From: an uncultured Alphaproteobacteria bacterium
GTDB taxonomy: Bacteria > Pseudomonadota > Alphaproteobacteria > Rhizobiales > Hyphomicrobiaceae
DNA length: 64,000 bases
Direction of reading: 5' to 3'
NCBI GenBank assembly: GCA_963741505.1
Contig: CAVUIJ010000008.1
Location: 17,114-81,113, forward strand
Shown: one piece after another, positions 2,153-63,949 of the stretch
Numbering within the stretch: the stretch's first letter is position 1
Layout of the letters: each line of letters starts with the position of its first letter
Notes under the pieces: model-generated
The model's input: the letters and a program-made list of their open reading frames with translations, nothing else
What the model was told of the DNA's origin: nothing
The model's database searches: none
Made by a program: the position numbers and the translations under genes

Positions 2153-3957
<1,805 letters not shown>

Positions 3958-43387: not shown

Positions 43388-43395
43388 TATTGCGT

Positions 43396-46413: not shown

Positions 46414-47598
46414 ATGGCGGGTATGCCGCTCACATTTCTGAAATCCAAGTTTTTTCGTGGCGCGGCTGCTGCAGCGATCGCGCTGGCGTTGTTGAGCGCA
46501 TGCACAAGGCTGGAGTTGGAGCCGGCCGCGCCGGGCGGGCCGCTGGAGCGCGCCGAGTCGGCCAAGCCCTTGGTCTACCCGCCGGCGCCGGCCGCTGTGC
46601 GCTTCATTCACGAGGCGACGATTCTGAGCAGCGCCGATGTGATTCCCGAGACCAACGCCGACCGCGTTCGGCTGTTCGCCACGGGCTTTGGCCGCACGGC
46701 CGAGGCGTTCGGAAAGCCGTTCGGGCTGGTCGCCCGCCACGGCCGGCTCTATGTGAGCGACACGGTGCGGCGGCTTGTTCATGTGCTCGACCGGGCGAAC
46801 GGCGAATATCGCCAGATCGGGACTCAGGAGCCCGGCCGCCTCACCAAGCCCTTGGGGCTGGCCGTCGACGACGGCGGGAGGTTGTATGTCAGTGACGTGA
46901 CCACCCGGCGGATACTGATCTATGACGCTGGCGGCGCATTTGTCGCAGCGGTTGGCGGGCCCAAAGATCTGACGCGCCCGTCTTCGGTCACCGTCTCGCC
47001 GGATGGCTCGCGGATCTACGTGCTGGACACCGGCGGCGTCGACAATAATCAACATCGCATCGTGGTATTCGACGCTGCGGGTCGGCGCGTGAACGTGATC
47101 GGTAAGCGCGGCGGGGGCGCGGGGGAATTCAACCTGCCGCTGGCTATCGAGCGCGCGCCCGACGGCGGGCTGTATGTCGTCGATACTGGCAATTTCAGAG
47201 TGCAAAAGCTGAGTGCCGATGGCGCGCCTTTGTCGGGTTTCGGCAAGCCGGGCCGTTATCCCGGACAGTTCGGGCACCCCAAGGATCTCGCGCTCGACGC
47301 CGACGGAAACATCTATGTCACCGACGCCAGCTTCGGCGTGTTCCAGATATTCAACTCGTCCGGTCGCATCCTGCTTTCGATCGGCGAGCGCAACGAGCAA
47401 GGCGGGCGCGGGCGGTTCCTGCTGCCTGCGGGCATTGACGTCGACGTTGATGGGCGTGTTTATGTTGCCGATCAGTACTTTAGGAAGATCGAGGTATTTC
47501 GACCCGCCTCGCTCCCAGCGTCGACCCCTCCGGGGGGACGGGTGGCGGCGATGCGCGCGGGAATTGCCGAGAAATCAGTCACGTTCCAGCCAAAATGA
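46414..47598 (+). CDS. NHL-repeat six-bladed beta-propeller lipoprotein
   Basis: Lipobox ALLSAC. Repeated (K)P.G(L/V)A(V/L)D..G.(L/I)YV(S/V/T)D modules, e.g. GRLYVSDT, GRLYVSDV, SRIYVLDT, GGLYVVDT, GNIYVTDA, GRVYVADQ. Confidence 0.85.
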   Translation: MAGMPLTFLKSKFFRGAAAAAIALALLSACTRLELEPAAPGGPLERAESAKPLVYPPAPAAVRFIHEATILSSADVIPETNADRVRLFATGFGRTAEAFGKPFGLVARHGRLYVSDTVRRLVHVLDRANGEYRQIGTQEPGRLTKPLGLAVDDGGRLYVSDVTTRRILIYDAGGAFVAAVGGPKDLTRPSSVTVSPDGSRIYVLDTGGVDNNQHRIVVFDAAGRRVNVIGKRGGGAGEFNLPLAIERAPDGGLYVVDTGNFRVQKLSADGAPLSGFGKPGRYPGQFGHPKDLALDADGNIYVTDASFGVFQIFNSSGRILLSIGERNEQGGRGRFLLPAGIDVDVDGRVYVADQYFRKIEVFRPASLPASTPPGGRVAAMRAGIAEKSVTFQPK

Positions 47599-47614
47599 GG
47601 GAGGCGGGTCGGCG

Positions 47615-48388
47615 ATGCGAGTGGAAAGAAGGGCGCGTTTGACGCGATCCGGCGCGGTCGTGGGCCTACTGCTTGTCGCTGCCGTCGCTTGGTCCGATCT
47701 CGCAGGGGCTCAGAGCGGCATCCGGGGCTCCAAGCACGACCTCGGCAATGGCCAGAACGACAATTACGAGGTCTGCGTCTACTGCCATACGCCCCATGGC
47801 GCCAACAGGGAAGTCGACGCGCCGCTGTGGAACAAGCCGGGCGGCGTGCAGGCATATCGCACTTATGACAGCGCCACGATTGACGGCAAGATCTTGCCCG
47901 TCGGATCGGTTTCCACCGCCTGCCTGTCGTGTCATGACGGCACTCAGGCGATGGACACGGTGATAAATGCGCCGGGCAGCGGCCTCGGTAGAGGCCGCAT
48001 CGGCTCGGGCGTCGGCGCGCTCAGCCCGAACGTCATCGCCAATCTCGGCGTCGATCTGCGCAACGACCATCCGGTGGGCGTGCAGTATGGCGGTTTCGAC
48101 CCAGGCCGCGGCCAGATCGATCCGGACTTCGTCAACAGAGCTACCGGCCTGCAATCCGCGCTTATGCTCGGGCGCATGCGTTGGTGGGTCGACACGGAAC
48201 GCGTCCCGAACGGGAATCGGGACAAGACCGACATGATCCTCTACACACGCAGCGTCGATGGCGTCGACCAACCGTTCGTGGAATGCGCCACCTGCCACGA
48301 TCCGCATCGCGGCTCGGGCACCAATCCGGCGTTCATGCGGCTCACCAACAAGGGCAGTAATCTGTGTCTGTCCTGCCATATCAAGTGA
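47615..48388 (+). CDS. periplasmic tetrahaem cytochrome c (SKHDL...CxxCHTPH type)
   Basis: Signal then GSKHDLGNG..YEVCVYCHTPH, CLSCHDG, NDHPVGVQY, VECATCHDPH, LCLSCH (4 CXXCH). Confidence 0.85.
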   Translation: MRVERRARLTRSGAVVGLLLVAAVAWSDLAGAQSGIRGSKHDLGNGQNDNYEVCVYCHTPHGANREVDAPLWNKPGGVQAYRTYDSATIDGKILPVGSVSTACLSCHDGTQAMDTVINAPGSGLGRGRIGSGVGALSPNVIANLGVDLRNDHPVGVQYGGFDPGRGQIDPDFVNRATGLQSALMLGRMRWWVDTERVPNGNRDKTDMILYTRSVDGVDQPFVECATCHDPHRGSGTNPAFMRLTNKGSNLCLSCHIK

Positions 48389-49386
48389 GTGCGAGGCCGA
48401 GGCGCACGCATGTATTGAAGACGGCCTGGTGCGGCGTCCTGGCCCTGGCTGCGGCTCTGACCGCGGTGCCTGCGCTCGCCACCGAGCAGCAGAAATTGGT
48501 GATCGCACGCGTTAACGACCAGCCAGTCACCGGCGGGGACTTCGCGCCGTATCTGCGCGCCTACTTGCGCTCCAAGCTCTATCACTCGGGCTCACCCGAG
48601 CGCACACGCGCGCTCGCCGAGGAGGCCATCGACGCTTTCCTGATCGATCGGGTGCTGACTGAGCAGGCCGCCGCGCAAGGGCTGAAAATCGGCGAGGCCG
48701 AGGTCGAAAAGCGCCTTGCGGACATCAAGACCCGGTTCGGCGACCGGCCCGAGTGGCCCGAAATCGCATCACGCCTGCCGAAGCTGCGCGAGGAGATCGA
48801 GACGGATTTGCGGATCGAGGCCCTCAAGCGCGAAATAAGCCGCGCCGATCCGCCGACCGAGGCGGAGATCCGCGCATTCTACGAGAGCCAACCCGAGCTG
48901 TTCACCCGCCCGGCGGCCTATCGGCTCAAGCTGCTGCTGATTGCCGTGGAGCCGGGAGCGAGCGCAGAAGCCTGGCGCGCCGCCGAGGTACAGGCACAGG
49001 AATATGCGCGTAGGGTCGCGGCAGGCGAGGACTTCGCCGCGCTTGCGCGCGCTACTTCGAAGCACAGCTTGGCCGAACTGGGCGGCGCGACCGGCCTCGT
49101 CCATGAGGGCCAGTTGGGCGAGGCGGCCGAGGCCGCGCTGCGCCCCGCCAAACCCGGAGAGGTGGCCGGACCCGTCCGTCTGCTGGAGGGCGTCGCCCTT
49201 TTTGCTGTCGAGGAAAAACGTCTTCCGACACTCATGCCGTTGCCCGAGGTAAAAGAACGCGCCTCGATATTGATGGAACGCGATCGAGCGAAAAAGCAGT
49301 GGAATAGCTTCGTAGAAACAATAAGAGGGAAATTCTCCATCGATAGGTCTGCATTTGCGGAGTTTCTCGCAGGCGCCCTCAGGTAA
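48385..49386 (+). CDS. SurA/PpiC-type peptidyl-prolyl isomerase / periplasmic chaperone
   Basis: Signal AWCGVLALAAALTAVPALA, a SurA-N-like helical region, and a rotamase-like block LLLIAVEPGASAEAW..A..YARRVAAGEDFAALA. The GTG start overlaps the upstream TGA. Confidence 0.65.
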   Translation: MSARPRRTHVLKTAWCGVLALAAALTAVPALATEQQKLVIARVNDQPVTGGDFAPYLRAYLRSKLYHSGSPERTRALAEEAIDAFLIDRVLTEQAAAQGLKIGEAEVEKRLADIKTRFGDRPEWPEIASRLPKLREEIETDLRIEALKREISRADPPTEAEIRAFYESQPELFTRPAAYRLKLLLIAVEPGASAEAWRAAEVQAQEYARRVAAGEDFAALARATSKHSLAELGGATGLVHEGQLGEAAEAALRPAKPGEVAGPVRLLEGVALFAVEEKRLPTLMPLPEVKERASILMERDRAKKQWNSFVETIRGKFSIDRSAFAEFLAGALR

Positions 49387-49481
49387 GCACTAGGCAGACT
49401 GGCGATGCTTAGCGGCAGGCTCTCGGAAGGGCGGATACGAAGAAGCAGACAGTCCGGCTGCGGGCGTATTATCGTAGCGCG

Positions 49482-49779
49482 ATGCGTTGCGTCGTGTGCC
49501 CGAACCAGTCGATCGACGATTCCAGTGCGCCGCTGGCGAAAGATCTGCGTGTCTTGATTCGCGACCGGCTGACGGCCGGAGCAGAGCGACACGCAAGCCC
49601 ACGCGTTCATCGTCGCGCGATACGGAAACTTTGTATTGTTGAAGCCGCCGGTTCCAATGAACACTCTGTTTCTCCGGTTCGCTCCAGCGCTTCTCGCTGC
49701 GGGTGTGCTATTTGGACTGTTGCGCTTCCTGCGCCACCAGCAATCATTCTTGCCCGGCGCATCCGGGATTCGGCCCTGA
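49482..49779 (+). pseudogene. ccmH: CcmH/CycL-like cytochrome c maturation thiol-oxidoreductase, frame-broken, no signal peptide found
   Basis: [32 protein letters not shown] (LRCxxC motif) continues after an extra base near 49581 as [47 protein letters not shown]. Confidence 0.7.
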
Positions 49780-49852
49780 CGAGTGCTGCCGAAGAATTGA
49801 CCGCGGAAGAAAACGAGCGCCAGCGGGAGATCTTGGAGAAAGGCATTTAGTC

Positions 49853-51196
49853 ATGAACCTGTGGATCATCCTGACGGCAATAACGACCGTTGTCGCGGTG
49901 TGGGCGGTAATCCCGTTCCTGCGTCGTGCCGACGCGGCTGAACCTTCGAACGAGCTCGCGAAGAGTTCCGCCGTTTATCGCGATCGACTGCGCCAGATCG
50001 ATGCTGAATTGAAGGCCGGTGTCATCAACGAAGCAGACGTGCAGGCCACAAGAGTTGAGACGGCTGGTCGCCTCGTTCTCGCCGAACGCGAAGAACAGGC
50101 AAAGGCCGGACCGGCGCAAATGGGCAATCGCAGTTTTGCAGCCATCGCCATTGTCGGCGTAGTCGCCGTGAGCTCCGCCATTCTCTATGCCAAGATCAAC
50201 CAGCCCAGCCGCATTCCAACTGCACGGAACGCTGACGATGTGCTCGCTGGCAACAGGGGAGCACTGCCCGCTCGTCACCCTGTGATCTCGGGTAACGCCG
50301 CGCGCACGCAGCCATCGGGCGCCGCGGACGCGCAAGGTGGCGGCCTTCCGACCATCGAGGGAATGATCGAGAGACTGGCGCAGCGCCTCAAGGCCAATCC
50401 GGAAGACGCGAATGGCTGGCGCACACTCGCCTGGTCGTATGGGGCGCAAGGGCGGTTCAAGGAGGCGGCATCGGCCTACGATGAGGCTATCAAGCGTCAG
50501 CCCGAAAATGGCGACCTGTATGGTGCCCGCGGTGAGCTTCTGGTGCGTGTCGGCAATGGCATCGTTTCTCTCGAGGCCGCCAATTTGTTCGAGGAGGCAC
50601 TCAAGCGCGACAAGGAGAACCCGCGCGCCCGTTTCTTCCTGGGGCTCAGGAAGGAACAAGCCGGCGATCGCGTGGCTGCACTCGATGATTGGATCGCAAT
50701 CCTCCGGCGCGCGTCACCGAGCGAGCCCTGGGTCCGCGATCTCAGGGAGCGTGTCGAACAAACGGCCGCGGAGATCAAAGTCGATCTGACCGGCCGGCTG
50801 CCGGCTGAGTGGCCGGCGGCGCAGATCGGAGGCGTCGGAGCGGGCATTCCGGGAGTGCTCCAAGAGGAGAAAAGGTCCGGATCACAACCGGGGGCACCAG
50901 CGGGCGCGAACATCTCCGGCTCGAAAGCTCCCACGGCGGCGGACGGCCAGCGCATGGCAGCCGCGAGCCCCGAGGACCAAATGATCCGCAACATGGTTGA
51001 CGGCTTGGCTGCCCGCCTCGAAAAGCAGCCGCGCGATTTCGAAGGTTGGTCCCGCCTTATCCGCTCACGCACGGTTCTGGGCGAGATGGACAAGGCCAAG
51101 ACCGCACTGGCCAAGGCCCGTGAGGTTTTCGCAGATACGCCCGAGGCGCTTGGCGTGATCAGCGCAACGGCACGCGAAATCGGGCTCGAACCTTAG
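49853..51196 (+). CDS. ccmI: CcmI/CycH-like c-type cytochrome biogenesis protein (TM + TPR)
   Basis: MNLWIILTAITTVVAVWAVIPFLRR, a second TM FAAIAIVGVVAVSSAILY, and TPR-like ANGWRTLAWSYGAQGRFKEAASAYDEAIK. Confidence 0.75.
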   Translation: MNLWIILTAITTVVAVWAVIPFLRRADAAEPSNELAKSSAVYRDRLRQIDAELKAGVINEADVQATRVETAGRLVLAEREEQAKAGPAQMGNRSFAAIAIVGVVAVSSAILYAKINQPSRIPTARNADDVLAGNRGALPARHPVISGNAARTQPSGAADAQGGGLPTIEGMIERLAQRLKANPEDANGWRTLAWSYGAQGRFKEAASAYDEAIKRQPENGDLYGARGELLVRVGNGIVSLEAANLFEEALKRDKENPRARFFLGLRKEQAGDRVAALDDWIAILRRASPSEPWVRDLRERVEQTAAEIKVDLTGRLPAEWPAAQIGGVGAGIPGVLQEEKRSGSQPGAPAGANISGSKAPTAADGQRMAAASPEDQMIRNMVDGLAARLEKQPRDFEGWSRLIRSRTVLGEMDKAKTALAKAREVFADTPEALGVISATAREIGLEP

Positions 51197-51465: not shown

Positions 51466-53316
51466 ATGCTTCGGAGGGGGTGCGTTGGAGGGGGCTTAGT
51501 GAGCGCGCTGCTGCTCACTTGCTGCGCCCTCGATGCACAAGCACAGCCTCCGGTCGAAGTTTCCGGCGAATTGGAAGCCTCGGTGACGTCGCGCAAGCTG
51601 CCCAGCGACGACAAGCACGAGGTCATTTCTCAGGTGCTTGGCAACACCCATATCTCGACCTATCTGTGGCAGCCCTGGATTGCCACGGTGACCGCCGATC
51701 TCCACGCGGCGTTCGAGACCAGTTCCAGCGGAAGCTTCGGCGACGCGACCAGCGTAGCAGGCGATGTTACGCTCTCGGCGCTGCCCTCATCGCGCTATCC
51801 ATTCCAACTTTTTTTCTCTGCGAGCGACAATCGTTTCGACGGCGAATACGCGTTGGACTATACGCGGATGCGAGCGGGGATGTCGGGCCGGGCGGCGCTC
51901 ACCGACAAATCCAGTCTCGACTATCTTGTCAGTTACGACCAGTTGGACCGGGCTAAGTTCGGCGACGTAACCGCGCTGCGCGCAGAAACGACATTTCGCC
52001 ACAGTTTCAGCGTCGGCCAGTTGCCGCTGAACATCACCGACGTCGGCATGTCGTTCAACTACTACAACACGGATTTCAAGAGCGGATTGTCACGGGATCC
52101 GGGCAATTCGAGCGAGTCCGTGGCAGGTACCTTCTTTTATCGCGCGGTGCCGACGGAAAGGATCAATCATGATTTCAGCGCGACCCTGATTTCCGACAAG
52201 TCAATCTACAAGCAGGATCGCTTTGATCGTCTGCTGGCACAAACGGTAGGCACGGCTCAGTGGCGCTCTCCCTCGAACGACTTCACTACCACTAGCGCCG
52301 TGCGCCTGATGTTCCAACAGGTCGACCATCGCTTCGCTCAGGATAAGAAGACGGATACCGATAGCGCCGTAGTGGCCGCGAGTGCGGGCGCAAGCTGGCG
52401 TGCAAACGACCGTCTCACCATGAGCCTCGGCGCGCGCGCCAATTTCGAGCGCATCGAGACCATCGCCGATGAACAGAACATTGTGCAACCCGAGGTGGGC
52501 CGGTCCAATTACGCAGGCGGCATTCTAAGCTCGATCGACTACCGTTCGCTCGCCTATCAGATGGGCGGTTTCAACTGGCACTGGGACGCGCGCGCGGTCG
52601 GGGATCTTTCCTACACCACGAACCGTTACGAAACGAAGCTCTACGAGAGGATTTACGGCCCGCGCAGTGATGCCGCGGTCAGCATCGGCCACTCGTTCGA
52701 TCGGATGATGCGGGTGCCCTGGATCGACAGGGTCAATTTCACTTTTCTTCAGGAAACTGGATTTGCTCACTACGGCTATAATGGAGAGTTCAACCCTTTC
52801 GTCACGCACAGCTCGTCATTCACAAAGGCTTTCTCGGATGAGAATGGAGCGAGTTACTTCCGCCTCTATCTGCGCGACACTCATCGTTTTGGCGACCAGA
52901 CGGACGAATACCAGACCGCACATGCCGATTTCACGCGGCAGATTCCGCTCAGCGGCAACCAGAGCCTTCACGGAAGTGTGGGCATTCAAGTGGTTCGTCA
53001 GCGTACTCAGGGAAGAGAAGATTTCTACGTCTTTTCTCCTGCTGACCTGGAATACGAGTACCGTAACCTGTTCGGTGTCAATGGTTTGAGTTTCACGTCT
53101 ACCGTGCGGATAAATGGGATCGGGCTGAATGATCCAGCGCACGACTGGAGCGACCAGCTGAGCCCGAACCTGTTCCGCAACGATTGGCGCAACCGGGTGC
53201 AGTATCGTGTTGGTGCGCTCTGGCTGTCGCTCGAAGGCACGCTGTTCCAGGTCGATGGAGAGCTGGGGTACTACGCGAGGTTTGCGGGGCGTCGCAGCTT
53301 CGACTTCGTGGACTAG
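51466..53316 (+). CDS. outer-membrane beta-barrel protein candidate (616 aa), no family recognised
   Basis: Signal ..LLLTCCALDAQAQ. Long runs of alternating hydrophobic/polar residues with aromatic girdles (e.g. LDYLVSYDQL, ETTFRHSFSV, GMSFNYYNTDF, RVQYRVGALWLSLEGTLFQV). It is lower in GC than its neighbours. Confidence 0.55.
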   Translation: MLRRGCVGGGLVSALLLTCCALDAQAQPPVEVSGELEASVTSRKLPSDDKHEVISQVLGNTHISTYLWQPWIATVTADLHAAFETSSSGSFGDATSVAGDVTLSALPSSRYPFQLFFSASDNRFDGEYALDYTRMRAGMSGRAALTDKSSLDYLVSYDQLDRAKFGDVTALRAETTFRHSFSVGQLPLNITDVGMSFNYYNTDFKSGLSRDPGNSSESVAGTFFYRAVPTERINHDFSATLISDKSIYKQDRFDRLLAQTVGTAQWRSPSNDFTTTSAVRLMFQQVDHRFAQDKKTDTDSAVVAASAGASWRANDRLTMSLGARANFERIETIADEQNIVQPEVGRSNYAGGILSSIDYRSLAYQMGGFNWHWDARAVGDLSYTTNRYETKLYERIYGPRSDAAVSIGHSFDRMMRVPWIDRVNFTFLQETGFAHYGYNGEFNPFVTHSSSFTKAFSDENGASYFRLYLRDTHRFGDQTDEYQTAHADFTRQIPLSGNQSLHGSVGIQVVRQRTQGREDFYVFSPADLEYEYRNLFGVNGLSFTSTVRINGIGLNDPAHDWSDQLSPNLFRNDWRNRVQYRVGALWLSLEGTLFQVDGELGYYARFAGRRSFDFVD

Positions 53317-53394
53317 GTGCCGTAGAGCACCATTGTTGCGTACAATACCAAGCCTCGTTGGCGCCAGCGGGGTCTCTCGGAGGCCCACTCCCAG

Positions 53395-53960
53395 GCACAT
53401 GCGGGGACGAAGAGAATTGCCGCGCGCTCGTCGTCGTGTGGCGCCGGCCGATAGGCTTCGTGTGCTCGAGCTGCGGGGAAGCCGACCACTCCATCGGCCA
53501 AGTTGCGCGACTTCGAGATGACGTCGGTCAGAGGACGCTCTATCAGTGCAATGTCTGGCGCCGGTAGGCGTTGCCAATGGGCGGCACAATCTCCAACTCG
53601 ACCGAGCTGTCTGTCACGACGTCGTTCAGTGTCTTGCACCTCATTGCGCGGTCAAAGCGACGTGTCTCCTCGATCGAACTCGGCCGCGGCCCGGCACGGC
53701 GCAGACGGTGGCCTGGAAGATCAAGACCAAGCTCGCCGTGGTGATGCGCAACGGCTGCCTGCGGTGAGCACCGCCTTGTCGGATTGCCTTGGATCGCTGA
53801 GGCTCCCGCTGCACGTAGCTCGAGATGGGCGGGAATGTGACCACGATGGCGGATTTGGACAAAAGAGGCTCGAAGCGGCGGCACAAGCGATCAAGTCGTT
53901 CTCGCAAAACGGCTTTCTCTCAGCCGGCGCCCCGACGCTCCTCGCATGCGGGAGAAATTC
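53395..53960 (+). mobile_element. IS1595-family (ISXO2-like) transposase remnant with multiple frame breaks
   Basis: Zinc-ribbon N-terminus DEENCRALVVVWRRPIGFVCSSCGEA...YQC, then ..SVLHLIARSKRRVSSIEL.. and ..TVAWKIKTKLAVVM.. in other frames. This matches the RWP.GF.CP.CG / YQC / KTAW...K order. Confidence 0.5.
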
Positions 53961-53963
53961 AGC

Positions 53964-54340
53964 CTAGACCGACCTTCTCGCAGGGGTGGGGATCGTCATC
54001 GCACGAGCGTCAGTCGATCCGCGTCGTGCGACTGCACGCGAGGCGTGACGAGCGCGCCGAAAAGCGTAGCCCCCGCATACGGTTGAGGCGCGCGACATGC
54101 TGGAAGCATGCGTCCCGCATGACGCGGGCGGCCACGGGCGTGCGACCCGAAGGGCGGGGCAAATTCGTTTGACAGGGTGCGTCGCGACGTCCGGCCCGGA
54201 TGGGCCAAAGCCGGCAATGCCGGCTCGCGCGCCTTCGGCGCAGGGTGACCATAGATCGGCTATGCTCTGCGCGCCGCTCCTGCCCTGTCAAACGAATTTG
54301 CCGCCGTGCCGACCCCGCCCCTGTGAGAAGGTCGGTCTAG
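53964..54340. mobile_element. MITE-like element: nested inverted repeats
   Basis: Outer IR ctagaccgaccttctcgcaggggtgggg (53964-53991) versus the reverse complement of 54313-54340 (26/28). Inner perfect 20-bp IR ggcaaattcgtttgacaggg (54158-54177) versus 54283-54302. Confidence 0.6.
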
Positions 54341-54924: not shown

Positions 54925-56072
54925 TTCTCACCCCCTTGTTTGCCATTGAGCGCCGCCTCGATCCCGCGCGGATACCATGTCGCTCCCCCGTAGCCGCCGA
55001 CCCATGCGGATCCCTCCCCAATTGCGATGGCGAACACGCTTGAGACGTTCGGTCCTGATGCATCTACCAGCTTATGGAACGTTCCGCCATCGAACGACGC
55101 AAGCCCCCGATTAGTTCCGATCCAGATCCGACCTCCGCTGATCGCCAGCTCGAATACGTGATTGCCGGGCAAACCGTCCGCCATGGTGAAGCTGCGCCAC
55201 ATCGCGCCGTCAAAACGGCTCAGTCCCGCGCCCCAGGTGCCGGCCCAGACCACGCCCTCGGCGTCGACGGCCAGCGAGACTACGTAGTTGGGATTGTAGG
55301 CCGGCCCGGCGCGCTCCAACCCCTGCTCCTGACGCTGACGCTGGTGGTGGCGCGAGGTCGCCGAGGCCGCCCTGCGCTCCTGATCTTCTCCGGCCACCCG
55401 CTCCCACGGCGCGCCGAGGCCATCGGCATGATTCCAACTTGTCCAGGCGCCGCCCCGGTATCGGGTGAGCCCGCCCTCGGTCGCCAGCCAGACCGCTCCG
55501 TCCGGAGCGGAGGCAAGGCCGTAGACCCAGTCGTTGGCCAGACCGCCCTTGGTGCTGGCAACGGTATGCAGCCGCCATGCGGACGGATCCCCCAACGCGC
55601 CGCCGATCACCTGATTGACGCCGGACCACGTGGCGATCCAAATGTCGCCGCGCACATCGCGCATCACGTCATAGACGAAGCTGTCTCCCAGCCCGTCGGG
55701 GATGTTGTAGTGCGTCCACCCCTGCGTCACCGGGTCCAGGATCGACAGGCCGCCGCCGTACGTGCCGACCCAGATCCGCCCGTCAAGCTTGCCCACATAA
55801 AAGACGCCGTTGGAGAGAAGACCGCTCTTGTTGTCGTAGACGCGCTTCTCTCCGGAGAGATTGTCGAAGCGGATCAGGCCGTCGGAAGTGCCGAGCCAAG
55901 TCAGCTTGCCATCCATGAGCACGTGTTTGACGTTGGCGGAGCCGAAATCGAAGCTGATTGACGAGCGCAGTTCGCCCACCCTCTCTTTCTCCGGCGGCGT
56001 GGCCGCCGCAGTGATCGCGCCGAAGCAAAGGGCAAAGAGGCCAGCGACGCAGTAGGTCGCGCGCGGCCTCAT
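54921..56072 (-). CDS. secreted beta-propeller with two-component-regulator-propeller (Reg_prop) repeats
   Basis: Signal MRPRATYCVAGLFALCFGAITAAA. Repeats of type DGL.(S/N)..V..(V/L)..D..G.(I/V)W(I/V/A)GT..G(L/V)..(F/Y)D. ATGA overlaps at both ends. Confidence 0.75.
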   Translation of the reverse strand: MRPRATYCVAGLFALCFGAITAAATPPEKERVGELRSSISFDFGSANVKHVLMDGKLTWLGTSDGLIRFDNLSGEKRVYDNKSGLLSNGVFYVGKLDGRIWVGTYGGGLSILDPVTQGWTHYNIPDGLGDSFVYDVMRDVRGDIWIATWSGVNQVIGGALGDPSAWRLHTVASTKGGLANDWVYGLASAPDGAVWLATEGGLTRYRGGAWTSWNHADGLGAPWERVAGEDQERRAASATSRHHQRQRQEQGLERAGPAYNPNYVVSLAVDAEGVVWAGTWGAGLSRFDGAMWRSFTMADGLPGNHVFELAISGGRIWIGTNRGLASFDGGTFHKLVDASGPNVSSVFAIAIGEGSAWVGGYGGATWYPRGIEAALNGKQGGEK

Positions 56073-57152
56073 GGGGACGCCTTCGGCGCGATGAGCCGCA
56101 CAACGCCGCCTTTCACCCCGGCGAACACATCGCCGCCGCTGGCAACAGTAAGCGCATAGACATGAGCGGGCGAACGACCGAGATCGTGGCTGGTCCAACG
56201 CGTCCCGTCGAAGCTGGAGACACCCTTGTTGGTGCCGAACCACATGACGCCTTTCTCATCCTGGGCGAGACTGTAGACGATGTCACCTGCCAGCCCGTCT
56301 CGACTGGTATAGTTGGTCCAGATACCCTCTCGCGACAGTAGTGCCGCGCCGCCGCCCCAAAGCCCGAACCAAACGCCCTTGCCCGTCCGGTCGACATGCA
56401 CAGCGAACACGTAGTTCTCATTATAGCTGCTGCCGCCTTCTTTGCCGACGTCGAGGTCATGGCGCGATTTGCGTGCCCAGTCCGGTGTTGGTGCTGGCGG
56501 CTGCGCCCGCGAGATTTGGCGCGCCGAGCCCTTCTGTATGGGTCCAGCTTCGCCACTTTGAGCCGTCGAACATGGAGACGCCGCCCTCGGTGCCGAACCA
56601 GACGCGGCCCTCGGCGTCGATATCGACACCATAGACCCAGTGATTGATCAACTCGTCATGATAGGTGGTAAAGGTGTCGGTCTTCGGGTCGTAGAGATTG
56701 GCGCCGTCCCAGGTGCCGATCCAGACCCGCTGCCGGTCGTCGAAAGCAAAGGCGTAGACCCAATAATCCGCCAGCCCGTGCATGGGAAAGAAGGTGCGCC
56801 ACTTGCCATTCTGCAGCCGCGACGCGCCGCCGGCGTTGGTACCGAACCAGACCGCATTGTCCGGCGCCAGGCCGATGGCGAAGACGTACTCGTTCGCCAA
56901 CCCATCCTTGCGCGTGAAGCGATTGCGCGGATCCATGCTGGTGAGGTCGATCTCCAGCACGCCGTTGGAGGCGCCGACCCAGAGGGAGCGCTGCTTGGCG
57001 TCCACCGCCAGCGAGCGGACATAGCTCTGGTCGCCCAAGCCGTAGAACTCGACCTTGCGGCCGGCGGCCGAGGCCGGCGCGGTTGCCACAATGCAGGCGG
57101 CCAGCAGACAAGTGACACTAACGCCGCAACGATCGAACATAGGCCAAAACAT
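56069..57152 (-). pseudogene. second Reg_prop beta-propeller (paralogue), one frame break
   Basis: ORF 56457-57185 (..DGLANEYVFAIGLAPDNAVWFGTNAGGASRL..) continues in ORF 56069-56632 (..NYVFAVHVDRTGKGVWFGLWGGG..). Break near 56470. Confidence 0.7.
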
Positions 57153-57426
57153 CGAGCAGCTCCCTCCCACGGAGCACCACTTCAAAACCCGGCATCAGGC
57201 CCCTGCCGTATCGCAAGCTGCGCACGAGCGACTGCTCGGGCGCCATCAGCCCGTCGCCTCTGGAGAAATCGGGCGTTCCCGGCATCTGCGGAACGCCGTT
57301 GTTGCCATGACAACGCGCGCAGTGCTCCGCGTAAATCTTACGTCCCTTGAAGTAATCGCCAGCGTGCGCCGGCGCGGCCGAGAAGACAGCGGTCAAAGCG
57401 AGGGCTATAGGCGTGACGCGTTTCAT
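57118..57426 (-). CDS. monohaem class-I cytochrome c
   Basis: Signal MKRVTPIALALTAVFSAAPAHA. GRKIYAEHCARCHGNNG...GLMPGF (Met ligand context). Confidence 0.85.
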   Translation of the reverse strand: MKRVTPIALALTAVFSAAPAHAGDYFKGRKIYAEHCARCHGNNGVPQMPGTPDFSRGDGLMAPEQSLVRSLRYGRGLMPGFEVVLRGRELLDVLAYVRSLRR

Positions 57427-58463
57427 TTCGGCTCCGTTTTCTGACGACCCGCGGTCAGGATCTCCGATACCGTCCGCTCCGCAGCGTCAGCGGGCCATTC
57501 GCGGGCGCCGATGACGCGAGCCAGAACCGCGCCGCTCGAATCCAGGAACAGCGTCTGCGGGTAGGATTCCACCTGGAAGCGCTCGCGCGCAAAGGCACCC
57601 TTGCCGTCCCAGAAATTGCCGAATGATACCCCCGTATCGCGGATGAACTCTCGCGCGAAATCGCGATCCTTGTCAATATTGAGGCCGACAAGACGATAGC
57701 GCTTCGGATCGAGGGCGGCGGCGAAGGCTTGCAGGCTCGGCATTTCTGCGCGGCAGGGACCGCACCAGGAAGCCCAGAAATTCACGATAGAGATCATCCC
57801 TTCGGGAGGGGTCAGCGCATCGGGCGTCTCGGCGATGGCGGGCAGCGGCGCCGGCGCGGGCATGGCGCTCTTCGCCGTGGCAGCTGCGGCATGAGCCTTC
57901 GCAGCCCCGCCGCCTAGCTGCGGTGACTGAGGTTTCGCCGTGGCGGCCGCGGCATGGGCCTTCGCGGCATCGTCACCTTGCTGCGGCACCTCGCCCTTGT
58001 CGGCGGCCTCCCATTCCCATAGCGCCGAAAGCGCCTTGCGCCGGAAAGGATCGTCCTTGGCGGCGAGATGGACGAAGGTCCGCATGGCGCCCATCGCGCC
58101 TTTGCGATCGCCTGCGGCCTCGAGCGCCGCGCCAAGCCCGTAATAGGCGTTGATCTGTCGGGGATTGATGGTCAGCGCGCGGTCGAATGCGCTCGCCGCC
58201 TCGCTGGCGCGCTCCATCGCCAGATAGGCGAAGCCCAGATTGGCATGCGCCTCGGCGACGTGGGGATTGATGGCGCGGGCCTGGTCGAAGGCTGCCACCG
58301 CCGCTTGGGCGTCGCCGAGGCGCATCGCCTCTATCCCGCGAGTGAAGGCCTGACCAAAAGGAGTTGCGCTATTTGACGCGACCTGCTGCGGCGCGGTCCT
58401 GATCTCGGGGCCGCTGCCTGGCAGGATCTCCAGGATCAGGCCAACCACCAGGATGACCACCAT
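57423..58463 (-). CDS. TPR-domain / TlpA-ResA-like thioredoxin fusion (thiol:disulfide oxidoreductase)
   Basis: N-terminal TM, TPR repeats (AEAHANLGFAYLAMERASEAASAFDRALTINP), an Ala-rich tandem linker, and thioredoxin VNFWASWCGPCRAEMP. Confidence 0.8.
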   Translation of the reverse strand: MVVILVVGLILEILPGSGPEIRTAPQQVASNSATPFGQAFTRGIEAMRLGDAQAAVAAFDQARAINPHVAEAHANLGFAYLAMERASEAASAFDRALTINPRQINAYYGLGAALEAAGDRKGAMGAMRTFVHLAAKDDPFRRKALSALWEWEAADKGEVPQQGDDAAKAHAAAATAKPQSPQLGGGAAKAHAAAATAKSAMPAPAPLPAIAETPDALTPPEGMISIVNFWASWCGPCRAEMPSLQAFAAALDPKRYRLVGLNIDKDRDFAREFIRDTGVSFGNFWDGKGAFARERFQVESYPQTLFLDSSGAVLARVIGAREWPADAAERTVSEILTAGRQKTEPK

Positions 58464-58526
58464 GACTCGACGCAGCCGCCAGCAGGTGCGAGCGGCGGTG
58501 GCGCCGAACTGCGCCCTGTAGCCCCA

Positions 58527-59364
58527 TCAAACCGCTCCCTTATGTGGCGAGGTCGAGATGAACGGCACTCCGAAAAACGTGTAAAACGCCACGCAGAAGA
58601 TTAGAAGACTGAAGATCGCGCCCAACATCGGCCGCGCCGTGCTGCGCGGGCGCAGATGCAGAAACAGCAGCGTCGCGGTCCAGTTCACGAAGGCCCAGCT
58701 TTCCAGCTGATCCCAGGCCCAGTAGCGCTGCCAGGCGTTCTGCGCCCAGGCGGCACCGGCGACCAGCATCAGGCTCTGGAACACCACGGCGATCAGCAAC
58801 AGGCGATAGATATCGGTCTCCAGCGAAGCGGAGTCGGGCAGGCTGGAGAAGCGCATGCCTGAGCGTCTGGCGGCAGAGCAGCACCAGACCCAGTCCGGCG
58901 GCAGGAGTAGCCAGCCCGAGGAAGAACTTGCCGAACGTCACATGGATCGGCAGCCAGATCGTCGCGTAGGTCACGGGCGCCAATGTGTTCTTCACGGGCG
59001 TGAGCCACATCCAGACGGTCAGCACCGCCAGCAGCGGCAGCGTGCAGGCCAGCGCAGGCCGCAGGCGCGGCAGGCTGAGGAACACCACCAAGACAGCCAG
59101 ATGCAGGCTCCAGACATTGCTCGAGAGAACCTCGAACATATCCACATAGGGCCCGTGGCCGAGCCGGATCCACCTATAGGCAATGGCGACCGTGTGAAAC
59201 GTCAGGCCTGCCGCTAGGAGGCCGAAGGTCGCCTGCTGGCGCCCCGTGCGAAATGCGGTCGAGACTATGGAATGCGCCGTCGCCGCCAGGTAGAGCACGA
59301 CGGCGATCCCCAGCATCTGCGCCTCGAACGCAGCTCCGCTTTGCGCAACGACGTCAGGTCCCAT
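58527..59364 (-). pseudogene. ccsA: System II cytochrome c synthase subunit CcsA, one frame break
   Basis: The N-terminal TM part (ORF 58540-59364) joins ORF 58527-58856, which carries the WWD motif GAAWAQNAWQRYWAWDQLESWAF. Break near 58858. Confidence 0.8.
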
Positions 59365-60356
59365 GCTCTGCCTCCGGCACCGGCATTCGGGAGCCGATTG
59401 AAGAACACGGACAGCACGTGGGCCAGCAGCGCAACGCAGGCCATGATGCCGGTCGCGGCGATCCAGTGGTTCAAGGACTGGCCGACAATGGTGTAGCCCA
59501 TCCAGCTGCGCAGCCCGTCATAGCGAAGCTGGGCCGAACCTAGCGCGACGACTTCGCCGACCTGCAATTCGTGGCGCTTTTCGCCGTCGATCAGTACCAG
59601 GCGGCTGTTGACCGGTTTGGAGAATTTCCACGCTTTGTCCTTCTCGAACACCGGTTCGGGCATGTGGAGCCATACCTTCAACGGCTTGGTCGCGCCCGGC
59701 GGGGTCCAGGCAAGGCCCTGCTGGTTGTCGTTGATCGGGTAGGACGGCAAGTGAATCGCCCCGGTCTGCGCCGCGCCGGAGGCGCTCACATAGGTCAGAA
59801 TCGGCGCGAAGCCCTTGTTGTGGGTCGTGTAGAAGCGATAGTCGCCGAAGATCAGCGGCGTGTCATCGCCGACCCGCACCTCGCGCCATGTGCCATCCTG
59901 CTGGGCGATGCGGATCAGGCTCTCCGTCTCGCGCCGTTTCATGCCGGGTGCGTAGGTGATCTCGAATGGGCCCTGCAGGAACTTGACCTCGTTCAGGCGC
60001 AACTGATGCAGCAGCCCGGCCTCCGCCGTCACTGTCGCAGCATCAAACATCGAGCCCTCGGTGACTTCGACGCGACCCGACATCGAGTTCAGCCGATCAA
60101 GGCCGATCACCACGATCAAAGCGACCAACGCCGCGTGCAGGGCGAAGAGCATCGGCAGGCTCTTCAGCCGCGCACTGGTGGCCAGCGCCGCCAGAAGATT
60201 GGCCAGCATCAGCACGAGAGGGAGCACCATCCAGTCGGAGGTCCGGATCGGAAAATAGATACCCGCAATGGCAATGACGCCGCACAGTGCGATCAACGCG
60301 GCAGTTGTCTCTGCCGAGCCGAGGCGGCGGAGCGTGCTTCGGAACGTCTCTTTCAA
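59265..60356 (-). CDS. ccsB: System II cytochrome c biogenesis protein CcsB/ResB-like (exact 3' end uncertain)
   Basis: N-terminal TMs (AALIALCGVIAIAGIYF, MVLPLVLMLANLLAAL, MLFALHAALVALIVVIGL), a large soluble loop and a C-terminal TM HWIAATGIMACVALLAHVL. The last ~100 nt overlap ccsA. Confidence 0.7.
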   Translation of the reverse strand: MKETFRSTLRRLGSAETTAALIALCGVIAIAGIYFPIRTSDWMVLPLVLMLANLLAALATSARLKSLPMLFALHAALVALIVVIGLDRLNSMSGRVEVTEGSMFDAATVTAEAGLLHQLRLNEVKFLQGPFEITYAPGMKRRETESLIRIAQQDGTWREVRVGDDTPLIFGDYRFYTTHNKGFAPILTYVSASGAAQTGAIHLPSYPINDNQQGLAWTPPGATKPLKVWLHMPEPVFEKDKAWKFSKPVNSRLVLIDGEKRHELQVGEVVALGSAQLRYDGLRSWMGYTIVGQSLNHWIAATGIMACVALLAHVLSVFFNRLPNAGAGGRAWDLTSLRKAELRSRRRCWGSPSCSTWRRRRIP

Positions 60357-60366
60357 GGCGCGGTCC

Positions 60367-62845
60367 TCATGGCGGGTTCGCGCAGTTTTCGGAGCTATCC
60401 TTCATCCAGTTCTTGCCGGTCTCGCCATTACCGGGTGGGCCAACGGAGCCGCAATTCTTGTCTTCCCAATTGCCGCTCTGGGCAAATGACACGACCTTCA
60501 GCACCGAGCCGAGATAATATGGTCCGTTGGTATAGGGCGCGGTGGTGTTGTTGCGCACCTGCGTGCCAGGTGGCAGGCCTCCCTCCGGACCCACATCGTT
60601 CAGGTTCACGAGGAACGCCTTGTTCTTCCAGCCGTGGGGCACGGCAACGTGGCACCAGGTGCACTGCATGCGACCGATCTTGTCGGCATGGAAGGCGTGC
60701 AAGTTCTTCTTGCTGCCGCTGCTCTTGTCCGAGAAGCCGCTCCTGAAGTCCTCGCCCGCCTTCGTCGCATAGCGCTCGTAGACGTGGCACTTGAAGCAGA
60801 TGTCGTTTTCGGTGCCGGGCGCGCCAGTCCGTGCGGTGAGGCCGCCTTTCAGAATGAAGTTGTTGTTGGAGCCGTGCGGACCCCAGGAGCGGCCGTTCTC
60901 GCCGCCCTGCGGAACGATGGTGCCGGGCGCGGTCTCCGAACCGTGGCAGTCCGAGCAATACATGGTCTGCACGCCGATCTGGTCCGGCTGGTTCCAGGGC
61001 GGCAGCCAGAGGTTCGGATTGACGGGGTCGCCGGGGCCGCCGCGGATCGCGAGCGTGCGCCCGGTCGCCTCCATCACTGGATGCCAGGATCGGTGTTCGG
61101 AAACCGTAACGCTGCCGCCGGAGACGCCCGAGCCGCTGATGACCTTCGTCGGCTCGCCCCGGTCGGCGAGCGGCGCCTGGAACTCCATGGCTTGGTCGGT
61201 GTAGCGCCGCACAGCATTGGTTCCCGGCGGCGTGCCGCCCCGGCTCTGGCCCAGTTCAGGTGGCCGGATGTAGCCGTAGGTGGAGTGGCATTTCAGGCAG
61301 ACCTGATACTCGCGCGTGACCCAGGGCGCGGAGGCTGCGGTGGAGCCGCCCACCGGCGGGTTGCCACGCTTGACATTGAAGACCACAGGCGGGCTCAGGA
61401 ATTGGGGCGAGCCGTAGACCGGCTCGACGCCCCAGCTTCCGCGTAACACACCCGAGGCGATGTTGGTCTGCGGCACGCCCGGGCTACGGTCGCGCGTGCC
61501 CACCAAGTCGGGAACCGTAGGCGGAGCGTTGAAGATCCGGTTGCGGATCACGCGATGCGGATTATGGCAATCCGTGCACTCCACGTGGCGGTTGCGATCA
61601 TTGCCCCGGCCCAGCAATTTCCGGCTTTCGATATGGTCCTTGCCAGCTTGCGGCTCAGAGCCGGTGCCGATGTCATGCACTTCCGGTCGTTCATCGATCG
61701 GCATGCGCCGCAGGCTCTGGAAGTCCCGCTTGATGTCCGGAACGCTCGAGCCCGGCGATCCCTGGCCGTTCAGCACGTGTTCGGTCGAGGAATGGCATTG
61801 GTAGCAGCCTTCCTCCATGGCCGACTGGCCGCCCTGCTTGGGCGTCGTGACGCTGTCGGTGGCCTCGCGCAACAGCCGCCGGGAACCCTGGACGGTATGT
61901 GTGTCATGGCAGTTCAGGCAGCCGGCGCGCCAGACCGGCATTCCGACCGGAAACTCCCGCAGATTGGCGGCGTTGGCGGAGTAGGTCTCGTTGGCGACCA
62001 AGTTGTTCGCGTGCGCGGAGTCGACCCAGCCTTCCTTGTCGTGGCAGCCGAGGCAAAGCTGGTCACGCTTCTTGTCGAAGAACGGACCGGCAGCCGGCGT
62101 TTCCTGGAAGCGGTTCAGACGCAGGAACTTGATGTTTTCGGGGCCCGTGTCACGGATATGCGGATCGTGACACGAGGTGCATTCCAGCTTGTTGTCCGTC
62201 AGCGGCAAGCGCCGGATGGAGACCGGGCTTGTGCGAGCCCAAGTCTGGCGTGGACGACGGGCGGCGCAGCTCGCCGTCATCGTTCGCCAGCCGGTCGTCA
62301 TAGGTGAATGAGATCGGATGATCGTTAGTCAGATCGGTTCCCAACCGCCGCGTGAAGCCGGTCGAGGCGCCCTCGCCTTCGGGCATCGTTCCGTCCGGCG
62401 CGGTTCTGGAGAGCTTGATGTCCAGGTTCTGGCGCCCCTGGAGCACCAGGATTGAACCGAGCGCGACCGTGCCGTCATGGCACGAGAGGCAGAGCCTGGA
62501 GGAGCCGCCAGGCTGACCTGACCCGGCGGACTCGAACCAGCGCTTGCCCGCGTCGAACGAGGACGACGTGTAGGGCCTGTAGATCGCTCCGGAAAGGCGC
62601 CGGTTCCAGAGCGGCGGCGGCGCCGCTTCGTTAGCGGCGTGCGGCGTGTGGCAGAACACGCAGATCTGGTCTTGCTTGGAGCGCACTTGGCCCGGCCCGG
62701 TGACCGAGAGATTGTGCTTGGTGTTGGCGATGTCCGAAAGACGCTCGGCCAAGGCAGCCCCGAGCAGCGGCGCACAGATGCAGAGTGCGCCGAGCAAGAC
62801 GACCTGAATGCCTTTCAGGGCTCGGAGCAGGAAGCGCGCCGGCAT
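60367..62845 (-). pseudogene. ~826-aa undecahaem cytochrome c (tetrahaem SKHNL module plus a 7-haem extension), one frame break
   Basis: It starts MPARFLLRALKGIQVVLLGAL.. with TKHNLS..ICVFCHTPH, CLSCHDG and NDHPISFTY (ORF 62150-). It continues in ORF 60367-62301 with CTSCH, CLGCH, CLNCH, CYQCH, CTDCH, CLKCH, CSDCH, CFKCH and CTWCH. Break between about 62220 and 62290. Confidence 0.8.
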
Positions 62846-62847
62846 GC

Positions 62848-63949
62848 CTACCCCTCGGAAACTTTGGTAAGTTCTTTGAAGACAACCACTCGTGCCATTG
62901 AACATGTCGGCGACATATACATTCTGTTTGCCGTCTGTCCAAACCCCCGCGGGCAAGTGGAACGGGCCAACTTCGCCGCGGCCCTCGATCGGCAACAGCA
63001 ACTGGCCCTTCGCGTCGAAGACCAGCAGATGGTCGTGTCGCAATTCGACAACGTAGATGCGCCCGTCGCCGCCGACCGCGACGCCCTTGGGCCGCGTGAA
63101 CTGACCGACATAGAGGCCAGCCTTGCCGAAGGTCGTGGGAGCCGCTCCGTTCCCATCGAAGGACTGAACGCGGAAGTTCAGCGTGTCGCTGACGAACAGC
63201 CTTCCGTTGGCGAAGCTGAGATAGGTCGGCGCATTGAAGCGGCCCAGCGCATCGCCCGGCCCGCCGATGGTCGCTAGCAACTCGCCGGATGCGCTGAACT
63301 TCTTGACCACATGCTGGGCCGAATCGGCCACGAAGATTGCGCCGCTGCTCGGATCACGCGCCAGCCCTGTCGGCCGGGTGACAGCGCCGATACCGAAGTC
63401 CCCGCGCGGCTTGCCGTCCTTGCCGAGGCGCACCACCTTGGCGAGTTCGGAATCCGAAACCAGGTAACCGCCCTGGCCGTCTTCGACGACAGCGATCGGC
63501 GATTTGAAGCCGCGGTTATCGCCGGACTGGTCCCAGATCGAGAACGCTTTGTTGGCGAAATCGAAACGGACCAACGCCTTCAGGCCGGCGTCCACCACCA
63601 GCACCGAGCCATCCTCTAGCGTCAGCCCCGACGTCGGCCGCTTCAACTCCTTGTACCTTTGCTCGCCGGTCGCGATGCCCGCGATCGACCGAGCCACGTC
63701 AGTCAGAATGTTGCCGGCGGAACTCTTGCCGGAGACCGTCTGCTCGCCCACCAGCACCGCGCTCAGCCTATAGCGCGCCTTCTCCGGCGGAGCGGGCCAC
63801 TCCAGATTCTTGCTCTGTTCGCTGTCCGCACTCTGTCCGGGCTTCGACAGGCCCGAATTCTCCAGTGAAGTGCATGTAGCAAGCGTCGATAGGCTGACTA
63901 CGGCCCCTCCGACACGAACCAGACGCCACCTCCAATTGAGTCTGCTCAA
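62848..63949 (-). pseudogene. NHL-repeat beta-propeller lipoprotein (paralogue of 46414-47598), frame break 45 nt before its stop
   Basis: Lipobox LSTLATC. Repeats GSVLVVDA, GGYLVSDS, GAIFVADS, GRLFVSDT, GRIYVVEL, QNVYVADM. The natural end ..FNG|RVVVFKELTKVSEG* lies in ORF 62848-63156. An extra A near 62893 fuses it in silico to the cytochrome. Confidence 0.8.

Follow-up and report, generated by a model that had tools for sequence, protein, structure and literature searches.

Two predicted modules of NHL lipoprotein and OmcE-type cytochrome genes in a rearranged uet cluster of a Hyphomicrobiaceae bacterium

A 64,000-nucleotide (nt) stretch of contig CAVUIJ010000008.1 (assembly GCA_963741505.1) from an uncultured bacterium of the Hyphomicrobiaceae was analysed and is referred to here as the window. 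Judged by its gene content, the part at 42.3–64 kb is a rearranged uet (undecahaem electron transfer) cluster, a predicted outer-membrane electron conduit. We focused our investigation on two gene pairs of this cluster, in each of which a gene for an NHL-repeat beta-propeller lipoprotein is followed by a multihaem cytochrome gene. The first pair is located on the + strand. NHL_A (NHL1; 46414..47598) begins with ATG at 46414, ends with the stop codon at 47596-47598 and encodes 396 amino acids (aa) with a canonical lipobox (LSAC, within LLSAC). It matched PF01436 in four stretches (E 8.7e-26) and DUF5128, '6-bladed beta-propeller' (E 9.5e-12). Sixteen bases separate its stop codon from uetA (47615..48388), which encodes a secreted 257-aa tetrahaem cytochrome with a signal peptide and four CXXCH motifs. 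This pair (46414-48388) is arranged as an initial annotation of the window had described it.

The second pair lies on the − strand and comprises NHL_I (NHL2, the UetI counterpart; 62848..63949; PF01436, E 6.4e-14), whose lipobox LATC is atypical at position −1, and uetJ (60367..62845), encoding an undecahaem cytochrome. The initial annotation presented both as plain reading frames and did not mention that each carries a frame break. As the window is written, a 599-aa readthrough open reading frame (ORF) starting at 63949 joins NHL2 to haems 1 and 2, and a separate ORF of 613/644 aa (60367-62301) holds nine haems. With two frame corrections, at ~62893 in NHL_I and ~62208 in uetJ, a single protein with 11 haem motifs resulted, together with an NHL2 frame whose TAG precedes the ATG at 62845 by 2 nt. 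The 2-nt junction reported earlier is accordingly seen after correction at ~62893 and is absent from the window as written. The 599-aa readthrough ORF was also compared with a representative library of 1.84 billion proteins; the top matches were giant multi-NHL proteins and single-domain orthologs, with no discernible fusion among them.

The frame breaks were mapped by alignment to a colinear intact region of another Hyphomicrobiaceae metagenome-assembled genome (MAG), L086, whose UetJ is 83% identical. Six isolated and uncompensated +1 insertions relative to L086 were located, at 62893 (NHL_I), 62208 (uetJ), 59396 (ccsB), 58861 (ccsA), 58467 (a TPR-thioredoxin gene) and 56472 (a propeller gene). 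The alignment over 54-64 kb revealed no deletions and no in-frame stop codons in the window. Reconstructed UetJ (825 aa, 11 CXXCH) was colinear from end to end with the intact 827-aa homolog P0516 (83% identity, one 2-residue gap). Relatives that are 83-93% identical encode intact UetJ proteins of 824-827 aa, and NHL2 was 72% identical to the NHL gene of L086, which likewise ends 2 nt before uetJ. Similar breaks were found far from the cytochrome genes. Both lepA (2102-3957) and an aldehyde dehydrogenase gene (34209-35799) are split into two overlapping frames; the first split cuts GTP_EFTU at profile position 124 of 188 and the second divides the Aldedh profile into 1-340 and 334-461. These splits indicate that indel errors extend window-wide, beyond the cytochrome cluster.

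An alternative is that the second module is decaying into pseudogenes together with the adjacent propeller, ccsA and ccsB genes, which would leave the first module as the only functional one. Such decay would agree with the position of the six frame-breaking indels, all within 54.3-64 kb while the genes at 43-53 kb are intact, and with the public record of the contig, which carries only a 613-aa truncated product. However, isolated +1 insertions unaccompanied by deletions or in-frame stops are a signature of error rather than of mutational decay, lepA and the aldehyde dehydrogenase gene show splits of the same kind, and the reconstructed UetJ has kept its 11 haem motifs in a chain colinear with intact relatives. 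We consider decay very improbable. Since like breaks occur throughout the window, lepA included, and close relatives are intact, the simplest reading is that the frame breaks of the second module are assembly insertion errors, neither gene decay nor programmed frameshifting. A programmed frameshift in uetJ had been considered because the uetJ of Candidatus Tenderia was called a pseudogene by NCBI; it was rejected, as uetJ is read in a single frame across both parts in 33/33 other loci and the break is one of many +1 insertions. For annotation purposes, the broken genes of the window should be handled as assembly errors and not as pseudogenes.

The two cytochromes share a four-haem module. UetA aligned with residues 21-270 of reconstructed UetJ at 33% identity (BLASTP, E 1e-25), and all four blocks of haem-site alignment quoted in the initial annotation were present. 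In UetJ, residues ~21-270 are thus predicted to form an OmcE-like tetrahaem head, to which a seven-haem extension is joined, and in UetA the module makes up the whole protein. The earlier description of the large cytochrome as a tetrahaem with a seven-haem extension agrees with this, seven of the CXXCH motifs lying in the last ~555 aa. UetA and OmcE stop 2-3 residues past the fourth CXXCH, and UetJ continues with an invariant K-x-G-W-x-x-S-x-H. After haem 4 UetJ has an invariant His, H278. In 53 full-length UetJ homologs all 11 CXXCH and 14 further His were invariant, and these additional His would suffice for bis-His ligation of every UetJ haem. The Cys-containing tail noticed earlier was also conserved among these homologs (C799 invariant, C822 in at least 90%), which suggests a C799-C822 disulfide. 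Sequence search found no PDB relative of the extension; the GSU0615-type cytochrome encoded near omcE showed weak similarity to it (E ~1e-4).

A search of all PDB sequences with a profile built from UetA homologs matched 7TFS, the tetrahaem OmcE filament of Geobacter sulfurreducens, with an E value of 1.2e-31. The best match was 9YUQ (E 7.8e-33), a 16-chain entry named 'putative multiheme cytochrome c' (chain N, 218 aa), which may be a second solved OmcE-type filament. The UetJ head matched the same two entries (7TFS, E 3.2e-19; 9YUQ, E 1e-18). In tblastn searches UetA and the UetJ head matched omcE loci with E values of 1e-14 to 1e-27 and 32-35% identity. UetA has exactly eight His, four of them in CXXCH motifs, the others being H41 (in the SKHDL motif noticed earlier), H61, H152 and H231, the distal His expected for all-bis-His haems. 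When 80 UetA- and OmcE-type sequences were aligned, its 8 Cys and 8 His were invariant, and all 16 haem-binding residues were conserved in the UetA, UetJ-head and OmcE groups. Homology places both UetA and the UetJ head in the OmcE nanowire family. This relationship, like the identity of the Uet cluster, had been missed in the initial annotation. It connects the Uet system, found in Proteobacteria that oxidise metals or electrodes, with the Geobacter nanowire OmcE, whose structure has been solved.

We scanned genomes at one per species and obtained 80 uet loci, distributed over Alpha-, Beta- and Gammaproteobacteria, Magnetococcales and one Nitrospirae-labelled MAG; two of them (L039 and L042) are from Ca. 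Tenderia. Cultured strains with uet genes include Aromatoleum toluolicum T, Noviherbaspirillum sp. ST 5-3 and Ideonella sp. A 288. Homologs number more than 6,000 for UetA and more than 2,000 for UetJ, and cognate NHL-cytochrome pairs run to thousands. We assigned the cluster of the window to the uet type because its gene set matches the published uetA-J/ccsAB description, its genes have homologs in Ca. Tenderia and the order recurs in ~80 genomes. UetA was 42-43% identical to the uetA position of the Ca. Tenderia loci and 86-89% identical to its nearest relatives, from Hyphomicrobiaceae MAGs, which makes a host of that family probable; UetJ was 53-55% identical to the uetJ position of L039. 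The usual order is class I cytochrome (−), NHL_A, uetA, uetB, uetC, c7 genes, (uetH), uetI, uetJ, ccsB, ccsA. The window departs from it twice, by an inversion of the uetI-uetJ-ccs block and by insertion of a CcmI-like gene.

The pairing of propeller and cytochrome genes recurs in these loci. An NHL2-type gene was located directly upstream of uetJ on the same strand in 41/41 loci, with an estimated uetI-uetJ spacing of ~0 nt in 40 of the 41. An NHL1-type gene was directly upstream of a uetA-type gene in 56/98 evaluable cases, the exceptions being extra uetA paralogs and loci without NHL_A such as those of Ca. Tenderia. Among 58 loci, 31 contained NHL_A, UetH and UetI genes, 14 contained A and I, 11 contained H and I, and two contained I only. 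Substitution of UetH for a missing NHL_A was considered and set aside, there being no clean complementarity in this split. Many loci have a second uetA-type gene, either in tandem after uetA or in the order uetA', NHL_A, uetA, and this gene has no NHL gene of its own (L003, L004, L010; L013, L036, L052, L060, L061, L064, L065, L073, L074).

The same pairing was found at omcE. We examined the locus of G. sulfurreducens and seven further OmcE-type loci, with proteins 45-98% identical to OmcE, and a homologous NHL/DUF5128 gene was directly upstream of omcE in 8/8. The order is ppcA-like c7, resB, ccsA, two multihaem cytochromes (MHC), NHL/DUF5128, omcE. The core resB-ccsA-MHC-MHC-NHL-omcE was present wherever the contig was long enough (that of L084 begins at the NHL gene), and the ppcA-like c7 gene was seen in loci taken with a wider flank. 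NHL proteins of omcE loci were 25-31% identical to NHL1 and NHL2 over their full length (E 1e-26 to 1e-40). A lipobox was seen in all five GSU0617-type proteins inspected, and just after it these proteins have a common W/Y-P-x-x-P-E-x-x-R motif. Every OmcE-type module lineage thus retains its own adjoining propeller lipoprotein. In six loci the gene next to omcE on its 3' side encodes a Pfam-less signal-peptide protein of ~740-750 aa; in L087 and L088 one or two genes intervene. These two loci also have a second NHL/DUF5128 gene downstream of omcE (L087, 5850-8537, after a 521-aa Pfam-less gene; L088, 5925-7010). The initial annotation had tied its proposal of a fixed propeller-cytochrome pairing to synteny outside this genome. 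Such synteny was present in 41/41 uetJ, 56/98 uetA and 8/8 omcE cases, an outcome in favour of the pairing; the pairing is not strictly fixed at uetA, where about a quarter of loci have no NHL gene in front.

Neighbour-joining trees gave a clean separation of the cytochrome modules, with 103 sequences of UetA type and 34 of UetJ type. The NHL clades matched gene context: 53/53 members of one were encoded upstream of uetA, 42/43 of another upstream of uetJ, and 15/15 of a third were UetH-type. NHL1 of the window fell in the clade of NHL genes that are directly upstream of uetA elsewhere. The UetH clade is divergent, and no cytochrome gene follows UetH directly. The omcE-linked NHL clade had a bootstrap of 30/30. 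Median distances between the lineages paired with UetA (A), UetJ (J) and OmcE (E) were 1.46 (A-J), 1.50 (A-E) and 1.51 (J-E) for the NHL proteins and 1.28, 1.39 and 1.47, respectively, for the cytochromes. In both families the three lineages lie at roughly equal distances from one another, as co-divergence of the pair as a unit predicts. In this phylogenetic check of the pairs in other genomes, which had been suggested earlier, the NHL clades followed their cytochrome partners.

These comparisons show that the window contains two ancient paralogous two-gene modules, each an NHL lipoprotein gene followed by a gene for a cytochrome with an OmcE-type four-haem module. Two similar two-gene modules within 18 kb, on opposite strands, might also be read as a recent duplication in this genome followed by fusion or extension of one copy. 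Against this, the paralogs are only 31-33% identical (NHL1 and NHL2, 31%, BLASTP E 3e-39), each is 72-89% identical to an ortholog in other Hyphomicrobiaceae MAGs, and both lineages are present in most of the 80 genomes, in several classes. A recent origin is refuted by the phylogeny and is hardly credible. The term 'duplicated' used in the initial annotation holds in that the modules are true paralogs, ancient and shared by many genomes; the duplication did not take place in this genome.

The predicted location of the NHL proteins was considered next to their pairing. A crude lipobox screen was positive for 32/52, 29/42 and 7/15 members of three NHL clades. We infer that these lipoproteins go to the outer membrane, since a lipobox is present and no Asp follows the Cys. 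The 30 columns conserved across the three clades contain no His or Cys, and the proteins were read as non-catalytic because no conserved His or Cys suggests catalysis. A physical NHL-cytochrome complex, which the initial annotation had proposed from the pairing with the propeller in a putative docking or substrate-binding role, is plausible.

It is also possible that the NHL proteins are not specific partners. They might mediate adhesion to minerals or electrodes, stabilise an outer-membrane complex with the barrel in a general way, or be enzymes, and the adjacency would then reflect an operon inherited whole. General roles of this kind are offered in the literature, namely adhesion (Gmet_0556) and stabilisation of an outer-membrane cytochrome (OMC) complex (D. 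ferrophilus). NHL/SGL-type propellers include enzymes, and weak sub-threshold matches to the SGL and ScyF families were obtained; as to an enzyme, however, there are no conserved His or Cys for a metal or catalytic centre. The divergent UetH clade with no cytochrome gene directly after it fits a non-specific role, and so do the uetA genes of Ca. Tenderia and others that have no NHL gene before them (13/58 loci lack NHL_A, of which two carry NHL_I alone). On the other hand, the NHL clades agree with the type of cytochrome encoded downstream in Alpha-, Beta- and Gammaproteobacteria, Magnetococcales and Nitrospirae-labelled MAGs alike, the pairing is retained at the Geobacter omcE locus though the rest of that locus differs, and the stop of uetI and the start of uetJ are essentially fused in 40/41 loci. 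We regard a non-specific role as somewhat unlikely.

Several observations weigh against dedicated partnership and the assembly role discussed below. The loci without an NHL gene before uetA include those of Ca. Tenderia, and additional uetA paralogs lacking their own NHL gene occur. Strict bootstrap values for the NHL_A and NHL_I bipartitions were 0/30 in the crude neighbour-joining analysis, and a few sequences wander; because of the nil bootstrap for these two splits, the statement on NHL clades was built on clade purity and median distances. The NHL_A-uetA gap is usually ~240 nt, the 16 nt of the window being unusual, the Geobacter NHL-omcE gap is 577 nt, and omcE was predicted to be transcribed apart from gsu0615-0617 (PMC1829397). 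Given these wide gaps and the separate transcription predicted for omcE, co-translation is not general. AlphaFold2 monomer models were poor, with a mean pLDDT of 42.7 for the UetJ homolog P0242 (53-sequence alignment) and 53.2 for UetA (80-sequence alignment). The UetC family and the ~750-aa protein downstream of omcE had no detectable homology (hhalign probability 9%), and the searched literature gives no experimentally shown function for any Uet protein. The joint explanation that we favour, and consider reasonably probable, is that the locus is a uet cluster with two ancient NHL-cytochrome modules and assembly-error frameshifts, and that each NHL protein is the dedicated partner of its cytochrome.

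A possible mechanism can be outlined. Each NHL lipoprotein would be a non-catalytic, outer-membrane-anchored protein dedicated to its own OmcE-fold module, which it might hold, chaperone at the polymerisation surface or anchor during export and assembly. UetA could polymerise or dock onto the UetJ head, an idea based on the retention of all eight OmcE His in both UetA and the UetJ head, and the seven-haem stalk of UetJ would connect the head with the periplasmic c7 cytochromes and the UetC barrel. Within OmcE filaments, a neighbouring subunit provides the histidine ligand for one of the haems (PMC9473688). An interaction between UetA and UetJ, or polymerisation, was already suggested as possible by the Tenderiales authors (bioRxiv 10.1101/2022.05.06.490989), and the OmcE homology gives this earlier idea a structural rationale. 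The full proposal, namely that GSU0617, NHL_A and UetI are assembly or anchoring factors for OmcE-fold modules and that the UetJ head docks or nucleates a UetA polymer via an inter-subunit His-haem bond, is speculative and, as a whole, unlikely. If it were true, iron- or electrode-oxidising uet Proteobacteria would make nanowires resembling OmcE with their base in an outer-membrane barrel. Export, nucleation and anchoring of extracellular cytochrome wires pose a wider question, for which the propeller lipoprotein is a candidate assembly or anchoring factor.

The modules are embedded in a set of electron transfer and cytochrome maturation genes. Upstream of NHL_A, two genes on the + strand (~42318-43010 and 43013-43381) encode c7-type trihaem cytochromes with three CXXCH each, putative counterparts of the UetD/E/G-type periplasmic cytochromes; the matching Cytochrome_C7 genes of L086, of 234 aa and 124 aa, were 72% and 79% identical, respectively. 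Next is a class I multi-domain cytochrome c gene (43303..45000, +) with four Cytochrome_CBB3/Cytochrom_C domains (PF13442, four stretches, E 1.5e-55), and most of the 80 loci have a homolog of it beside NHL_A-uetA. A c7-type trihaem domain protein is encoded at 45208..45987 on the − strand (PF14522, E 4.6e-12; TIGR04257 nanowire_3heme, E 3.4e-18, above cutoff).

Downstream of uetA on the + strand, uetB (48364..49386) encodes a SurA-like PpiC-type peptidyl-prolyl isomerase (PPIase; PF13145, E 8.6e-15; PF00639; SurA_N_3), and a uetB homolog comes after uetA in nearly all 80 loci. It is followed by a gene for a CcmI/CycH-like TPR protein, a putative cytochrome c maturation accessory (49850..51196, +; TIGR03142 CcmI, E 2.9e-18, above cutoff; PF23914 TPR_CcmH_CycH, E 8.3e-20). 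A gene of this kind between uetB and uetC was seen only in the window; elsewhere among the 80 loci uetC is directly 3' of uetB. The CcmI/CycH-like gene is a System I accessory, yet the cluster also carries ccsA and ccsB of System II. The UetC counterpart (51466..53316, +), a putative outer-membrane beta-barrel of 616 aa, had no match in Pfam or NCBIfam. It was 60% identical over its full length to a 617-aa L086 gene product and, again over its full length, 20-28% identical to proteins whose genes follow uetB in more than 26 loci.

The uetI-uetJ-ccsB-ccsA block is on the strand opposite to uetA-C, with a breakpoint at 53.3-54.3 kb, so that gene content is kept and gene order is not. Between uetC and the inverted block running from Sel1 to uetI lies ~1 kb (53317-54336) without a convincing ORF and, as far as searched, without remnants of c7 genes; the lowest GC of the window (0.589) is at 52-54 kb. 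As this segment sits at the junction of uetC and the inverted block, it is probably the rearrangement breakpoint. The inverted block, all on the − strand, was colinear with L086. It includes genes for a Sel1-repeat protein (54337-54924; L086 Sel1), two Reg_prop-type propeller proteins (54921-56243 and 56069-57185, the second broken by the +1 insertion at 56472; L086 Reg_prop genes), a monohaem cytochrome c with one CXXCH (57118-57426; L086 Cytochrome_CBB3) and a ResA/CcmG-like TPR-thioredoxin (57423-58463, the insertion at 58467 lying just 5' of the listed ORF start; L086 TPR + AhpC-TSA/Redoxin). The System II cytochrome c maturation genes follow: ccsA (58527-59364, insertion at 58861; L086 Cytochrom_C_asm), with a WWD-like motif in its second frame, and ccsB/resB (59265-60356, insertion at 59396; PF05140 ResB, E 8.4e-7; L086 ResB). 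An accessory block of monohaem cytochrome c, two Reg_prop propellers, Sel1 and often TPR-thioredoxin accompanies uet genes in many genomes (L007, L020, L021, L024, L053, L055, L057, L059, L062, L086) and is outside the named uetA-J set.

The closest known system is uetABCDEFGHIJ-ccsAB of Candidatus Tenderia electrophaga, proposed as a conduit for extracellular electron uptake by Eddie et al. (bioRxiv 10.1101/2022.05.06.490989). The genes listed there encode tetrahaem UetA, PPIase UetB, barrel UetC, c7 cytochromes UetD/E/G, cupredoxin UetF, NHL proteins UetH/I, undecahaem UetJ and ccsA/ccsB. Other reports describe the uet cluster in Gallionella (PMC10734462) and Leptothrix (PMC13386937). The two Ca. 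Tenderia loci of our scan, L039 and L042, aligned gene for gene with this set. Tenderia and the window have in common UetA, UetB, a barrel-type UetC, c7 cytochromes, an NHL gene directly before uetJ, and ccsA/ccsB alongside. An NHL gene directly before uetA is present in the window and 45/58 other loci, but not in Tenderia. The window differs further in the uetI-uetJ-ccs inversion, the CcmI-like gene between uetB and uetC and the alphaproteobacterial host. Its c7 genes (42318-43381, 45208-45987) are outside the position between uetC and uetH that they have in Tenderia, and no UetF cupredoxin or UetH gene was found inside the window, the expected place being beyond position 64000. Where Tenderia has UetF, UetG and UetH, L086 (7052-8880, between the c7 genes and uetI) has two Pfam-less proteins of ~300 aa with signal peptides and coiled-coil-like Ala/Glu/Lys-rich sequence; in the present genome the matching stretch is past the end of the window. 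In the published Tenderia description, so far as its accessible text goes, UetA is not related to the UetJ head or to OmcE.

The omcE locus of G. sulfurreducens consists of ppcA, resB, ccsA, GSU0615, GSU0616, the NHL gene GSU0617, omcE and a gene for a ~750-aa protein. The omcE and uet systems are alike in the four CXXCH with four distal His, the upstream NHL lipoprotein, the nearby c7, resB and ccsA genes and the large Pfam-less signal-peptide protein encoded downstream. Glycosyltransferase genes come after omcE but not after uetA, and the Geobacter locus has neither a PPIase gene nor an 11-haem fusion protein. OmcE forms filaments; UetA and UetJ are candidates for polymerisation. In OmcS, the hexahaem nanowire of G. 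sulfurreducens, an OmcE-type four-haem core is extended by two haems, compared with seven in UetJ, and OmcS is thus a precedent for extension of such a core by further haems in one chain. PDB profile searches with UetA and UetJ detected no sequence similarity to OmcS.

MtrCAB, PioAB and MtoAB follow a like logic, with a large outer-membrane barrel and multihaem cytochromes across the outer membrane. Scores against the DmsE/MtrA decahaem model TIGR03508 (27.5 and 35.3 bits; cutoff 192.2) and the OmcA/MtrC model TIGR03507 (19.3 and 14.8 bits; cutoff 209.3) were far below the cutoffs for membership, and the UetC counterpart was unmatched in the NCBIfam library, which includes the MtrB/PioB model. 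NHL propeller genes have been described in extracellular-cytochrome clusters of Desulfovibrio ferrophilus IS5 (PMC5815863) and Dethiobacter alkaliphilus (PMC10376724), with an interaction or stabilising role proposed. As a general idea, an association of NHL propellers with outer-membrane cytochromes is therefore already published. These reports, likened here to NHL_A/UetI by description, contain no one-to-one pairing of an NHL protein with a particular cytochrome fold. The searchable literature gave no relation between UetA and OmcE and no mention of an NHL gene beside omcE, with the paper on the OmcE structure (PMC9357133) outside that search. What is added here to the known systems is a predicted one-to-one, co-diverging pairing of NHL lipoproteins with OmcE-type modules, OmcE itself included, and the view of UetJ as a putative OmcE-like head on a seven-haem stalk.

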